Positions 11,678-59,578 of a DNA stretch of 64,000 nucleotides are shown piece after piece (the stretch's first letter is position 1; the number at the start of each line of letters is the position of its first letter). Under the pieces are notes generated by a model, which saw only the letters and a program-made list of their open reading frames with translations, had not been told where the DNA came from and searched no databases. A program made the position numbers and the translations under genes. The DNA comes from Candidatus Versatilivorator sp. (GTDB lineage: Bacteria > Acidobacteriota > Terriglobia > Versatilivoradales > Versatilivoraceae): contig OZ242296.1 of NCBI GenBank assembly GCA_965207735.1, positions 2,528,001 through 2,592,000 on the forward strand, read 5' to 3'.

Positions 11678-11695
11678 CCCGCATTTCTCACCCGG
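11674..11695 (+). repeat. Solo copy of the MITE terminal repeat CTAGCCCGCATTTCTCACCCGG
   Basis: 21/22 identical to 57375-57396; its TAG is the stop codon of the AEC gene. Confidence 0.75.
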
Positions 11696-33381: not shown

Positions 33382-33455
33382 TGGCTGGGAGGCAGGGATT
33401 CGAACCCCGATAGGCAGATCCAGAGTCTGCTGTCCTACCGTTAGACGACCTCCCA
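33382..33455 (-). tRNA. tRNA-Gln (CTG)
   Basis: Minus strand TGGGAGGTCGTCTAACGGTAGGACAGCAGACTCTGGATCTGCCTATCGGGGTTCGAATCCCTGCCTCCCAGCCA folds as a cloverleaf with anticodon CTG, GTTCGAATC T-loop and encoded CCA. Confidence 0.97.
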
Positions 33456-55029: not shown

Positions 55030-57378
55030 ATGCGGCACGGCACCTACCGGCAGGCAGTTGCGGCTGCAGTGACCATCACTCTTGCCGCCCTGCTTTCGCA
55101 AACCTGGGCGGAACCCTCCGCCCCCTCTGTCGCCGCCCGGTCTGACGACCGCAAGCCTGCTTGGTGGTCCTTCCAAAAGCTCCGGCGGCCCCAGATCCCC
55201 CGGCCGGGGAACGGCAGCCAGCCTTCCAATCCCATCGACGCGTTCGTGTTGGCCAAGCTCCGGGAGAAGCGTCTCGAGCCAGGCCCCGCCGCCGCCAGGT
55301 CGGTCCTGTTGCGCCGGGCCACCTTCGATCTGTGGGGTCTGCCACCGACTCCCGCCCAAGCCGAGCGCTTTCTGCGGGATGACTCGCCCGAGGCCTACGA
55401 AAGACTCATCGAGGAGCTGCTCGAGTCGCCCCGTTACGGGGAACGCTGGGGGCAGCACTGGCTGAATGTGGTCGGGTACGCCGACAGCAGATCCGACTCA
55501 GAGGACTACCATCCCAACGCCTGGCGCTATCGGGACTACGCGATCAAATCCTTCAACGACGACAAGCCCTACGACCGCTTCGTCCAAGAGCAGATCGCCG
55601 GAGACGAGCTTTTCCCGAACAACCTCGAACTGGAAGGCTTCTACGACCTCTCTCCCGAGAAGCTGGAGCACCTGGAAGCCTGGATAGGAACCACCATCTT
55701 CGCCGTTGGGCCGGGAGGCCGAGAGGGGCATCTGGATGCGGAAGTCTCGCGGTACCGCTGGCTGACCGAGGTGGTGAACAAGACGGCGTCCTCATTCCTC
55801 GGGTTGACCCTGGAATGCGCCCGTTGCCACAACCACCGATCCGACCCTTTCTCCCAGGAAGACTACTTCGGGCTGCAAGCGATTTTTGCCGCCAGCCGGC
55901 CCTCAACCATTCCGGTTGTGGCCTCGACCACCCTGGGCCACCGCGACGAAGCCTATCATATGGCGATTGCTCTGGTGGAAGCCAGAGACGCTTACCTGCG
56001 GTTTGCAAGGCAGGTCAGGGATCGAGTCGTCGAACCCAAGAAACGGGACTATCCCTCGGAAGTGGTTCATGCCTACGAGATTCCCCTGGAAGCGCGATCC
56101 GCCCGAGAGACGGAATTGGCGGCTCCGTTGGACCAATTGCACCGCGAGCTGAATATTGAAGAGCACCTTACTCCTGAAGAGACCGAACGCCACCGGGAGC
56201 TGACCCGAAAACTGGCCAAGGCGGCCGTGGCCATTCCTGCCAAGGGATTGGCGCACAAGGTTGACTATGATGGGTTTTACGATGTGCCGTCAGCCACGGT
56301 GCTGGGTGGAGTGAGGACGGAGTTGATTCCTGAAACTCACCTTTTGAACCGCGGGGAGCCGGCACGCAAGAAACACCTCGTCCACCCCGGTCTTCCCCGG
56401 ACCCTCAGGCATGACGCCGGCCCGGCCGAGTTGTTCCGGGAAGCCAATGGCCACCACTACCGCAAGCAACTGGCCCTCTGGCTGACGCGGCCGACCCATC
56501 CTCTGACCGTCCGGGTCATGGTCAACCGCATCTGGCAGGGTCACTTCGGACAAGGCCTGGTGCGCACTGACGACGACTTCGGTCCCCAGGGCGACTCTCC
56601 CGTCCATCGGGAACTGCTGGATTGGCTCGCCTGCCGATTCGTGGATCAGGGTTGGAGCGCGAAGTCCATGCACAGGCTGATCATGCTGTCAAACACCTAT
56701 CGAAGGGACAGTCGCTTTTCCACGGCCGGCCATCGGCGGCAAGATCCCTCCAATCGCTACTGGTGGCGCATGAACCCACGGCGGCTGGAAGGCACAGCCG
56801 TTTGGGATGCCATCCACCAGGTGTCAGGCGCCCTGAATCTGAAGATGGCAGGTCGGCCGGCAATCCCGCCCCTGGCGGAAGTCGAAGGGACTACCCCTCG
56901 AATGACGTCCCGGTGGCCCGCCTCGGACGATCCGACGGCGGGCCGTCGGCGCGGGGTCTACCTTCTGACTCGACGAGCGCCTCCACGGTTCCACCATACG
57001 ACTGCCGCCCCGGCTTCCAACGGCTGCCCTGCCAAGGATGCCGGCAACGAAAGTCCTCTGACTGTCTGGAAACTGAACCGCAAGGGCCTTTACCAGCAGG
57101 CCCGCAATTTGGCTTCCCGTCTGGTGCGAGATGCGGGTAAGGACCCCTCCCGCCAGATCGACCTGGCCTGGCAACTGACCCTGGCGCGGGCCCCCAAGGA
57201 TGAAGAGAAACAGGAAGCGCTGAACCGGTTGAATCGACCGGCCTCGAACAATCAATCTCTGCCGGAAAACGGATCCCTCCCGGAGGGTCCGGGTTCGCTC
57301 GATCCGCCGCAAGCCGCGGCACTCACCCGCCTCTGTCTGAGTCTGTTCAATCTCGAAGAGTTTGTCCGTATCGACTAG
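55030..57378 (+). CDS. DUF1549/DUF1553 protein lacking the N-terminal cytochrome c; paralog of 50301..52913
   Basis: Long near-identical blocks (KPYDRFVQEQIAGDELFPNNLE.EGFYD.SPEKLEH, ALWLTRPTHPLT.RVMVNRIWQGHFGQGLVRT); CARCH. Confidence 0.9.
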   Translation: MRHGTYRQAVAAAVTITLAALLSQTWAEPSAPSVAARSDDRKPAWWSFQKLRRPQIPRPGNGSQPSNPIDAFVLAKLREKRLEPGPAAARSVLLRRATFDLWGLPPTPAQAERFLRDDSPEAYERLIEELLESPRYGERWGQHWLNVVGYADSRSDSEDYHPNAWRYRDYAIKSFNDDKPYDRFVQEQIAGDELFPNNLELEGFYDLSPEKLEHLEAWIGTTIFAVGPGGREGHLDAEVSRYRWLTEVVNKTASSFLGLTLECARCHNHRSDPFSQEDYFGLQAIFAASRPSTIPVVASTTLGHRDEAYHMAIALVEARDAYLRFARQVRDRVVEPKKRDYPSEVVHAYEIPLEARSARETELAAPLDQLHRELNIEEHLTPEETERHRELTRKLAKAAVAIPAKGLAHKVDYDGFYDVPSATVLGGVRTELIPETHLLNRGEPARKKHLVHPGLPRTLRHDAGPAELFREANGHHYRKQLALWLTRPTHPLTVRVMVNRIWQGHFGQGLVRTDDDFGPQGDSPVHRELLDWLACRFVDQGWSAKSMHRLIMLSNTYRRDSRFSTAGHRRQDPSNRYWWRMNPRRLEGTAVWDAIHQVSGALNLKMAGRPAIPPLAEVEGTTPRMTSRWPASDDPTAGRRRGVYLLTRRAPPRFHHTTAAPASNGCPAKDAGNESPLTVWKLNRKGLYQQARNLASRLVRDAGKDPSRQIDLAWQLTLARAPKDEEKQEALNRLNRPASNNQSLPENGSLPEGPGSLDPPQAAALTRLCLSLFNLEEFVRID

Positions 57379-58494
57379 CCCGCATTTCTCACCAGGGGGC
57401 ATGAACATGGCGCAGGATTTTTCCCTTCAGCGCGTGCTCGCGACCGAAGAGCGTAGCGGTCACTACGCGCGAGGGAGCATGTGCGCGCTGAAGGGAAAAA
57501 GACAAGCCAGGGCATGCCCAGCGCAGTCTGTTACCCGCAAGCCCTTACCATGGAGCCAATCAAAGTACTGAAGATAAACTACTTGTCGTCATGGCACCAG
57601 CGACCTGGGTAGAGTCGAGGACTGGCGCGTTGACTATAGGGTCCGGTGGCTATTCCGTCGCTTTCGCTTCGGGCCTCAGTCCGGCTCCCTTATCACGTTT
57701 CCAGTCCCCGCTCTCCGAACCGGACGTGCGGTTTTCCCGCATCTCGGCTCTCCAGTGGGATCATGCGTCTCGCACACAGGTCCCCGCTCGCATCCGTGGA
57801 CGACTCCTATGGGATTGGCACCCGTCCCCCACTCCATCCACTTCCGCTCCCGGGTTGCCGCCAGGCCTGTTGATGCCCTGACGACGCCGTCCTCCTCCGA
57901 CGACCCTTTCACTTTTGCATGTGATGCTTCCGGAGTCTCCGGCCCTTTTTTGGTCGGGGTTTCAGGCTTTCGCCACTCCCGGGACCCTTCCCCCTTCGGT
58001 CACCGCTCCTCACCTGAGGCCCCTTCCCTCCACCGGTATTACCCGGCTTCTCCGGTACTACAGGCCTCTCCGCCACCCTGTCGGCCTAGACTGACTCTCG
58101 CGAGCTTCCGGTTCGGTGCGTGCCTCACCACCCACAGGGCTTCCCATGTTGCTGCCTTCTTCCCCTTCCATGCGTGCCAGCGCCACTACCCCGGCGGGTC
58201 CAAAGGGGTGCCCGCGTCGCTCGCTTCCCCCTCCGTCTTCGGCCTTCCCCATTTCTCAGGTGGGTCGGCCCCCGCATTGCCCGTTTCGAGGCCTGCTCGA
58301 CGTTCACTCGCGTTCCGGCCCGCATGCTCGCTGAACCGCCTTAAGCGGCCCTTTGACACCAGAGGGCTTCAGACCATATCGTTACCTCCATGATCCGCCC
58401 TGGCTGCTACCAACCGGAGCGACAGTTGTTGGACGGGTTTCGCACCCGTTGGAAGAAGGCGCCTTTCCATGGCGCACTGAGAAATGCGGGCTAG
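57375..58494. mobile_element. MITE-like element (~251 bp without the intron) with 22-bp terminal inverted repeats, interrupted by a group II intron
   Basis: Left end CTAGCCCGCATTTCTCACCAGG. Removing 57609-58477 rebuilds the exact inverse on the right. Internal 17-bp stem at 57418-57434/57484-57500; no transposase. Confidence 0.82.
57609..58477 (-). ncRNA. ORF-less group II intron (IIB-like), 869 nt
   Basis: 5' end GTGCGCCATGG. Domain V GAGCCGAGATGCGGGAAAACCGCACGTCCGGTTCGGAGAGCGGGG. Extended domain VI ends CTCGACTCTAC. EBS1-like loop TGAGAAAT; no RT ORF. Confidence 0.92.
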
Positions 58495-58528
58495 CCCGCA
58501 TTTCTCACTGGGCTCGCGTAAGGGGGGG

Positions 58529-59578
58529 TTATCCTTCGAAGGTAATGACTGTCTTGAGGGCTTGGCTCTCACCCCTGGCCAGGGAGGTCATGGCCCGAGG
58601 CGTTTCATTCAGGCGACAGCGGCCCTCGATAAAGGTTGCCAACTCCGACTTGATGTCGGGCAGAATGGCGACGGCCTTCGCAAAGTCGCTCCGATCGAAA
58701 CCGTAGGTCCCCACCAGGCATACCTCGTTGCTGACCGCATCCTGCAACGGCAATGAGACTTCCTTGGCAAGATTCCCGATCAGCAGCAGAGTTCCTCCGG
58801 CTTCCAGCAGAGACAGGCACAGGGAGAACGACTCCCGCGTCCCGACGGCATCGATCACAACCTCCGACCGTCCCGCCAGGAGGGATTCGACTTTCCCCGC
58901 TTCCCTGGCCGGGTCTCCGGAGGAATCCACCGGAACGGCCCGAGCCCCGAACTCGGCGGCGCGATCGGCCTTCTCGGCCACCGTGTCCAGCACCACCGTC
59001 CGGGAAAGTTCCCTGGCACGCGCCATCAGGACCGCCGCCAGCCCGATGGTCCCGGCGCCGACGATGGCCAGCCGGGCCGGACGCACCCCAAGCCTCTCCA
59101 AACGCCGCCACCCACGGGTCACTACGGCCAGGGGCTCGGCCAGGAGTCCGATTTCGGGCGGAATCCCCGAAGGAAGCAGAATGGCGTTCTCTGCCGGAAC
59201 AGCCAGGAACTCGGCCATGGCTCCGCGCTTGGCCAGGTTGACGCCGATCATCTTCTTGTTGAGGAAGGAGGGGTCTCCCTCGTCGGGGTCCGGGGGCGCA
59301 TGGGCGATGATATTGTAGATGGTCACAGGATCGCCTATTGCCGGAGAGCGGACGCCCTCTCCCTGGGCAACCACCTCGCCGGCGGCCTCGTGTCCCATGA
59401 CCATGCCGGGCGCCCGCCGGCCGCTCTCCCCGGTGAACCCATGGACGTCGCTGCCGCAGATACCGACAGCCTTCATCTTGACCAGGACCTCTCCTGGCGC
59501 CGGTTCCGGCTTGGGCAGTCTCTCCAGCTTCATGTCCCAGGGAGCATGAAACACCACGGCTTGCATGAATTCCGGCAT
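58529..59578 (-). CDS. Zinc-dependent (MDR) alcohol/sugar dehydrogenase
   Basis: GICGSDVH, GHE.AG.V, LAEPLAV, GAGTIG, VIDAVG. Confidence 0.9.
   Translation of the reverse strand: MPEFMQAVVFHAPWDMKLERLPKPEPAPGEVLVKMKAVGICGSDVHGFTGESGRRAPGMVMGHEAAGEVVAQGEGVRSPAIGDPVTIYNIIAHAPPDPDEGDPSFLNKKMIGVNLAKRGAMAEFLAVPAENAILLPSGIPPEIGLLAEPLAVVTRGWRRLERLGVRPARLAIVGAGTIGLAAVLMARARELSRTVVLDTVAEKADRAAEFGARAVPVDSSGDPAREAGKVESLLAGRSEVVIDAVGTRESFSLCLSLLEAGGTLLLIGNLAKEVSLPLQDAVSNEVCLVGTYGFDRSDFAKAVAILPDIKSELATFIEGRCRLNETPRAMTSLARGESQALKTVITFEG

Follow-up and report, generated by a model that had tools for sequence, protein, structure and literature searches.

The window analysed here is a stretch of 64,000 nucleotides from the Acidobacteriota bacterium Candidatus Versatilivorator sp. 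(contig OZ242296.1, positions 2,528,001 to 2,592,000). In it, a DUF1549/DUF1553 gene and a gene for a Zn-dependent dehydrogenase flank a miniature inverted-repeat transposable element (MITE), whose right terminal inverted repeat (TIR) is split by a group II intron without an open reading frame (ORF). The same TIR terminates an insertion sequence (IS) of the IS1380 family. Our analysis makes it very probable that the ORF-less intron, seated 13 nt inside this shared TIR, spreads by retrohoming with the reverse transcriptase (RT)/maturase of sibling introns, and that its lineage has been retargeted by swaps of domain I (its six domains are abbreviated DI to DVI). Coordinates of the features are collected in Table 1.

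The intron, its host element and its exon pairings

The borders, length and strand proposed for the intron in an initial annotation, made from the letters of the window, are borne out by comparison of genomic copies and by matches to both Rfam models named there as a check, group-II-D1D4-4 (80.8 bits, 58308-58451) and Intron_gpII (41.2 bits, 57609-57752). The hallmarks of group II introns are present, namely a GUGYG 5' end, an AY 3' end, a six-domain RNA, DV and a bulged A in DVI, and the ORF-less character also holds, there being no ORF of 100 aa or more on the intron's own strand and no RT gene inside it. A blastn search of DIV against the RT-encoding loci gave no match. The RNA shows all three traits given for subgroups IIE and IIF in PMC3753933, with alpha' in a terminal loop, a 5-nt DV loop and a long DVI. 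Over 439 aa, the RT of a sibling intron shares 45% identity with class F/g3 Ni.ha.I1; its identity to g2 B.th.I3 is 34%, both values coming from pairwise comparison with g3 and g2 references. On these RNA features and pairwise identities the intron appears class F-like.

Joining the two exons restores a transposon end, and the joined element matches intron-free copies at up to 98% over its whole length. The initial annotation had described an element of about 251 bp with a split right inverted repeat; the split is real, but the length is 243 bp (57379-57608 plus 58478-58490) with CTAG on either side, the larger figure including CTAG twice. We read the outer 4 bp as a target-site duplication because other copies have non-palindromic direct flanks (TTAG/TTAG and CTAA/CTAA); TTAA/TTAA and CCAG/CCAG also occur, and matching 4-bp flanks were found on 25 of 41 MITEs (many of them palindromic CTAG) and on 20 of 21 IS1380 copies. 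Thirteen congeners were examined, and in all six where the end of the DUF1549/DUF1553 gene could be placed the MITE site is empty, the end of the dehydrogenase gene following within 102 nt or overlapping.

The target 13-mer CCCGCATTTCTCA occurs exactly 157 times in the genome, against 0.14 occurrences expected by chance. Pairing of these ends gave 62 two-ended elements, comprising 21 IS1380 copies (1697-1698 bp) and 41 short elements (130-254 bp). The IS1380 element has a 19-bp TIR starting with CC, makes a 4-bp duplication and encodes a 455-aa transposase that passes NF033539 (410.6 versus a cut-off of 180); 18 of its 21 copies are identical. The short elements are non-coding, multicopy and have TIRs in common with an autonomous IS, as is characteristic of MITEs. 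Their similarity to IS1380 is confined to the first 17 bp of the TIR, and they are not internal-deletion derivatives of the IS. With the same TIR in 21 full copies, IS1380 provides the autonomous partner that the initial annotation had supposed for the MITE, and to judge from the shared ends its transposase probably moves the MITE.

Pairing between intron and exons was assessed by covariation over 29 types of exon-binding sites 1 and 2 (EBS1/EBS2) from related loci, 12 further intron starts having been omitted since the motifs could not be located in them. Complementarity of EBS1 to the target scored 5.81 versus 3.22 in shuffles, and none of 2000 shuffles reached the observed value; the candidate of the initial annotation, which lies in an open Id3 loop and covaries with intron-binding site 1 (IBS1), is thereby upheld. 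Its EBS2 candidate, AUGCGGGC, has to be given up. It forms part of core stems, with an unpaired probability of at most 0.1 for seven of its eight nucleotides, it is identical in siblings with unrelated targets, and it does not covary, its score of 3.29 versus 3.19 being reached by 251 of 2000 shuffles. The segment following CCUCGAAA, which contains CGGGC, scored 4.19 versus 3.10 with no shuffle in 2000 reaching it. EBS2 is therefore likely to be CGGGC, because AUGCGGGC is paired, invariant and non-covarying while CGGGC covaries. A third candidate, GCGGG just 5' of Id3, was rejected, as it pairs within the intron and shows compensatory changes between sibling types. In introns of target type C, described below, EBS3 changes from G to A together with a change of IBS3 from C to T. 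All three pairings of group II introns, EBS1/IBS1, EBS2/IBS2 and EBS3/IBS3, can thus be drawn, with EBS2 relocated. The last base of IBS2 (58491) falls inside the CTAG duplication. Targets in this lineage often carry T at position -16 and A at position -15 (18/29 each), here supplied by the CTAG/TTAA duplication of the IS, and we suggest that the protein would read these two bases and so fix the 13-nt offset.

Table 1. Positions of the intron, its parts and the surrounding features in the window.
Feature	Position	Strand	Basis or remark
Left target-site duplication CTAG	57375..57378	plus	Contains TAG stop of the DUF1549/DUF1553 gene (55030-57378)
Left MITE TIR, 18 bp	57379..57396	plus	First 17 bp equal the IS1380 TIR; intron-free; leading-strand template
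MITE body, 230 of 243 bp	57379..57608	plus	Long internal hairpin; no IS1380 similarity beyond the TIRs
Right TIR, inner 5 bp (3' exon)	57604..57608	minus	IBS3 is its first base, C (57608)
ORF-less group II intron, 869 nt	57609..58477	minus	GTGCG at 58477 to CTCTAC at 57609; class F-like
DVI, long, bulged branch A at 57615	57611..57714	minus	Fold; z -5.3 for DV-DVI
DV, AGC triad, 5-nt loop GAAAA	57717..57750	minus	Rfam match and fold
DIV, ORF-free, ~265 nt	57751..58015	minus	Alignments: short traces of RT gene start and stop region
DII/DIII junction CAGGGTGGCGGA	58067..58080	minus	Breakpoint interval of two DI-DII swaps in related ORF-less copies
EBS3, G	58186	minus	Pairs with IBS3 C (57608); Watson-Crick in 55/66 intron/3' exon cases at related loci
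alpha' GAGCGACG, side-stem loop	58215..58222	minus	Complementary to alpha (58417-58424), and fold; IIE/IIF feature (PMC3753933)
EBS1 UGAGAAAU, Id3 loop	58251..58258	minus	Unpaired in fold; covariation with IBS1 over 29 types
Likely EBS2, CGGGC	58279..58283	minus	Pairs with GCCCG at -14..-10; covariation, 29 types, 0/2000 shuffles
AUGCGGGC, former EBS2 candidate	58318..58325	minus	Forms the 5' sides of the Id(i) and Id(ii) core stems; fold, alignments, covariation
Right TIR, outer 13 bp (end of 5' exon)	58478..58490	minus	IBS1 58478-58485, IBS2 58487-58491; lagging-strand template
Right target-site duplication CTAG	58491..58494	plus	
Third, solo TIR	58495..58507	plus	Head-to-head with MITE end; unoccupied; leading-strand template
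Zn-dependent dehydrogenase gene	58529..59578	minus	Ends 51 bp upstream of the intron, same strand

Some further features of the host elements can be recorded here. The MITE interior at 57420-57500 forms a long hairpin (z -4.5) that is absent from the 130-bp variants; we take it that this may be a separate insert resembling repetitive extragenic palindromes (REP). TIRs stand head-to-head at one 4-bp site in the window (58478-58507) and at G000:C1 3557909/3557914, 4913409/4913414 and 2315632, the sites of this kind including a mini-element of little beyond two TIRs, and IS1380-type ends thus appear to pile up at each other's duplication. At window position 11678 there is another unoccupied TIR, in leading orientation, followed by a short degenerate element. 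The window also contains a tRNA gene (33385-33455, minus strand).

Genomic copies, target sites and replication strand

We found 28 full copies of the intron in the genome at 99.7-100% identity, 22 of them identical to the window copy. They are hosted by 19 two-ended MITEs, six IS1380 copies and three unpaired (solo) TIR-like sites. Every one is preceded by CCCG(C/T)ATTTCTCA and followed by CC, so that the near-identical copies all sit at one target and none at unrelated sequence, as the initial annotation had led one to expect. Its claim that the intron is programmed against a MITE end stands as far as the pairing of EBS1 with a multicopy transposon end is concerned (28/28) and falls as regards specificity for MITEs, since IS1380 was taken in 6 of the 28 cases. 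The introns are near-identical while their carrier MITEs differ by several percent. Occupancy was 27/147 at exact sites versus 2/80 at sites with one mismatch; sites 572744 and 331238 (G000:C1), where no more than the initial 7-19 nt of an intron adjoin the TIR, were excluded from these counts as 5'-end deletion scars, the former being consistent with loss via GCC microhomology. Among the 62 two-ended elements 26 carry an intron, and 14 of the 21 IS1380 copies are intron-free.

Insertion follows the direction of replication. The origin was placed at dnaA (3.54 Mb). For the terminus, at 0.73 Mb, we relied on the maximum of the GC skew, a search with an E. coli motif having revealed no dif-like site. 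With these landmarks the sense strand of 24 of the 28 copies lies in the lagging-strand template (p 1.8e-4), and exact sites are occupied in 24/66 cases on the lagging and 3/81 on the leading template (Fisher p 2.5e-7). In singly invaded two-ended elements the lagging end was taken in 23 of 26, left or right alike, while the orientation of the elements themselves to the fork is unbiased (10/21 IS, 16/41 MITE). The window is a case in point, as only the lagging-template TIR of the three at its MITE carries the intron. A bias towards the lagging template (24/28; 23/26) is the mark of retrohoming introns without an endonuclease domain, of the RmInt1/RmInt2 type, and it fits independent retrohoming by such an intron and not the transposition of an intron-bearing element. 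Because the choice of end follows the fork while element orientation does not, it is likely that the 28 copies homed one by one.

Two observations adjoin these counts. An IS1182 (NF033551; e.g. L206) often shares the CTAG of an IS1380 or MITE end, 11 of 27 IS1182 ends abutting a TIR (among them G000:C1 677210, 838670, 1212816, 3947349, 4620949, 5027595 and 5074255), and lagging TIRs at the IS1182 left end carry the intron in 7/7 cases, as against 17/59 for the remaining exact sites on the lagging template (Fisher p 4e-4, post hoc). This association could be due to an outward promoter, to a better distal exon or to IS1182 preferring invaded ends. In addition, GC skew at G000:C1 ~4.0-4.5 Mb is opposite to that of its replichore, which may reflect a recent inversion or a misassembly.

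Sibling introns and the mosaic structure of the ORF-less lineage

The genome encodes 15 RT-bearing group II introns, all with the YADD motif; 14 have open frames of 456-459 aa and one is split near its start. Their proteins are ~82-91% identical to one another, the one that was scanned has RVT_1 and GIIM and no endonuclease domain, and 13 of the 15 introns lie on the lagging template. Named close relatives of the sibling RT belong to Ca. Versatilivorator (Acidobacteriota). By target they comprise one intron of type A (the TIR), 13 of type B (another dispersed repeat) and one of type C (a 20-copy repeat). The type A intron, at 5004992, lies within an IS1380 TIR and shares its EBS1 with the window intron; it is the RT-encoding sibling that the initial annotation had suggested looking for. 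The window intron is not a simple deletion derivative of this same-EBS intron, the two being ~63% alike in DV-DVI. Three more RT-domain genes do not match the intron (G000:C1 3462635, 4583245 and 4242396, or L016-L018; frames of 317, 320 and 1525 aa). RNA runs of three studies (X1, X3 and X4) yielded contigs that cover the ORF-less DV-DVI at 0-1 differences; DNA carry-over is possible, no lariat or circle joint was found among the joints listed (in one set 15 of 25), such contigs cannot rank expression, and neither result is used as evidence here. The predicted spliced product has the sequence of a free TIR.

A type C site at 1135573 holds a 29th ORF-less copy, 90.5% identical overall. In DI-DII this copy matches the C-type RT intron (98.5% identity), and in DV-DVI it matches the window intron (98.7%). 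Five B-type ORF-less copies, with B-type EBS and targets, occur in genomes G004, G005 and G008, their DI-DII being 95-98% identical to B-type RT introns; the G004 form is present in three copies at separate sites. A-type copies in G005, G009 and G011 sit at the same TIR position in 17 of 17 cases, one MITE of G011 having the intron at both ends, and the TIR-targeting form persists in at least four genomes of the genus. The ORF-less 3' part was found in 6 of 13 congeners and in none of 17 other family members searched. Across eight ORF-less copies DV-DVI is 97-100% alike, ~63% identical to RT introns of the genus and ~80% to a Gemmatimonadota intron, and all ORF-less copies carry one DIV deletion form. 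In G012 the ORF-less 3' part is limited to the 167-nt end of an RT intron (L168, G012:C6:1-2618) that is 97% like L111 and ends in an ORF-less-type DVI, a reverse mosaic. As a side observation, a CGGA microhomology marks the junction in a 117-nt intron remnant at a type C site (G000:C1 4260992-4261108, L051), where the initial 84 nt meet the last 37 nt of the ORF-less type.

Trees of DI-DII sort the introns by target, and the approximately unbiased (AU) test rejected one clade uniting the ORF-less copies (p-AU 3e-61). Triplet tests on informative sites revealed abrupt switches of parent at intron nt 398-411, 394-407 and 320-323 (0/300 permutations each), and therefore at least two separate swap events. 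The chimeras carry both exons of the new target; for this reason, and because the G004 form lies at three different sites, they are likely to have moved after the swap. Taken together, these comparisons make it likely that the ORF-less introns were retargeted by recombination with RT introns. The simplest route would be a crossover between dispersed copies in a common stretch followed by retrohoming, or the swap may have come about by in-place gene conversion. We further consider it reasonably probable, with less assurance than retrohoming itself, that a portable 3' half (DIII-DVI) found across the genus has repeatedly captured the DI-DII of a co-resident RT intron, being reprogrammed in one step to a new multicopy repeat, staying mobile, and outnumbering its autonomous donor 28 to 1 on the TIR target. 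This would be a natural case of modular retargeting of a non-autonomous retroelement.

Beyond the genus, two Gemmatimonadota records (L137 and L144) each have an RT intron inserted in the left end of an IS1380 at the 13-nt offset seen here, and the RT intron of a Terriglobia record (L102) lies 13 nt inside an IS1634 end. TIR targeting as a general trait of the lineage was nevertheless rejected, most other RT-intron loci examined having unrelated targets or too little flank; it appears to recur but not to define the lineage. L115 (4497-6242) has a related intron 13 nt inside a TIR, of an element with a 581-aa transposase that stays below all NCBIfam cut-offs, IS1380 scoring best at 53.5 bits. 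In the Paracoccaceae records L121, L122, L131-L133, L136 and L142 related RT introns are arranged in tandem, head to tail, and some of these arrays include ORF-less units of 719 nt.

Proposed mechanism, alternatives and known systems

In the mechanism that we propose, read-through transcription, possibly from the neighbouring dehydrogenase gene, would supply intron precursor RNA, and a sibling protein without an endonuclease domain would help the intron to splice. The resulting ribonucleoprotein would recognise the 4-bp duplication plus the outer TIR through EBS2, EBS1 and EBS3, and at replication forks the intron would reverse-splice into the lagging-strand template while this is single-stranded; hence whichever end of an element faces the lagging way would be invaded. 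Over a longer time the old 3' half (DIII-DVI) would have recombined several times with RT introns of the same genome, at points close to the DII/DIII junction or towards the end of DI. The recombinants would have gained the donor's DI and with it a target, which is the TIR in the present case and one of two further dispersed repeats in other copies, before moving again.

A number of points weigh against this account. Splicing and mobility are predicted from sequence, and since the ORF-less DIV and DV-DVI are far from those of the local RT introns, activation in trans would need relaxed protein specificity. CGGGC lies in a local hairpin in the single-sequence fold, a competing pairing, and the 29 types used for covariation are mutually related, so that the shuffle result is not a strict probability. 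As to the strand bias, the replication landmarks were derived from dnaA and GC skew, the skew is reversed at ~4.0-4.5 Mb, and four of the 28 copies are on the leading template, one of these lying 37 kb from the terminus and one in the reversed-skew segment. One pair of intron-bearing MITEs (5027596 and 5213340) is identical, as expected from transposition with the intron or from gene conversion. For the mosaics, the C-type chimera is single-copy in the genome apart from the 117-nt remnant, and the group put to the AU test was named after the first tree had been seen.

The identical pair also speaks for a passive spread, in which the intron entered a MITE or IS end once or a few times, the 28 copies arose by transposition or gene conversion, the intron no longer has to be mobile and the split TIR is still functional. 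Matching 4-bp flanks on 21 of the 26 intron-bearing elements would likewise be expected from transposition, and a clade of right-end-invaded MITEs was rejected only weakly (p-AU 0.04). However, introns occupy the left and right ends of both IS and MITEs as well as solo TIRs, they are near-identical where their host MITEs are not, and the choice of end tracks the fork whereas element orientation does not, which largely refutes passive spread and leaves it highly improbable. A different objection concerns the mosaics, since ORF-less introns with different targets could have arisen by independent ORF deletions or by EBS point changes as in Thermosynechococcus elongatus, where EBS mutation is a published route of divergence (PMC2882425). 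Each ORF-less DI-DII is indeed closest to the RT intron of the same target, but the copies have one DIV deletion form and a DV-DVI that is far closer between them than to their presumed RT parents, informative sites switch parent abruptly, and the G012 RT intron carries an ORF-less-type 3' end. An origin by independent deletion or EBS point changes is contradicted by these data and can hardly be credited.

One may also ask whether the intron is kept for the benefit of the host, as a domesticated control that inactivates IS1380 and MITE ends, and is not a selfish passenger. Such a role has been proposed for RmInt1 (PMC5894124), and the invasion of 26 of 62 two-ended elements as well as the persistence of the TIR-targeting form in the genus are in keeping with it. 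We nevertheless think host control unlikely, given that most IS1380 copies are intron-free and 18 of 21 identical, that is, recently expanding, and that the same 3' half also targets repeats other than TIRs. Independent retrohoming with the help of sibling proteins, combined with exchange of DI-DII, is the reading that we retain.

Homing of an intron into transposon ends, and an ORF-less intron living off its siblings, are known in parts; the less familiar element is the exchange of DI-DII. We found no report of retargeting of ORF-less introns by DI swaps, as judged from titles and the opening lines of abstracts, and its novelty is provisional. If true, capture of a whole DI-DII would be a one-step route to a new target that dispenses with coordinated mutations of EBS1, EBS2 and EBS3. 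The mosaic would also be a natural example of discordant ribozyme evolution, the reassortment of RNA and protein that a review describes as unresolved or explained by convergence, and in which bacterial ORF-less introns are called rare (PMC4424553). Multiple near-identical ORF-less copies are described in B. cereus E33L (PMC2504315). Insertion may disable the transposon end, as the initial annotation had suggested for the MITE, and the identical IS1380 copies with and without an intron at either end offer a clean natural test of how a split TIR affects transposition.

For comparison, the Ni.ha.I1 intron of Nitrobacter hamburgensis (PMC3552965 Table S2; L209) has the same order of DI motifs around EBS2 and EBS1 and the same CTCGACTCTAC end, but unlike the intron described here it bears an ORF. 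The nearest parallel in choice of target is RmInt2 of Sinorhizobium meliloti GR4 (class D), for which experiments have shown homing into each of the two inverted repeats of ISRm17 with a lagging-strand bias (PMC4615759); the authors point out that the use of both repeats doubles the targets (PMC4615759; PMC5894124). Both introns target both IS inverted repeats, lack an endonuclease domain, show lagging-template bias and have recent identical copies (PMC4615759). RmInt2, however, is described with its own RT and seven copies, whereas the intron studied here is ORF-less, class F-like and mosaic, with 28 copies in IS1380 and MITEs. In dependence on siblings the parallel is the ORF-less TeI3 introns of T. 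elongatus, which proliferate with driver proteins (PMC2882425). There too ORF-less copies outnumber ORF-bearing ones and several EBS families exist (PMC2882425), but mobilisation in trans by a sibling protein was shown there by assay and is inferred here. The ORF-less TeI3 introns stem from one deletion of a close relative, their EBS diverged, and their proteins have an endonuclease domain (PMC2882425), whereas in our case the 3' half is distant from the local RT introns, and a new target comes with an entire DI-DII block. The intron thus pairs an RmInt2-like target strategy with a TeI3-like dependence, and it is this combination, its scale (28 copies, 26 of 62 elements) and the probable repeated exchange of DI-DII that set the case apart.

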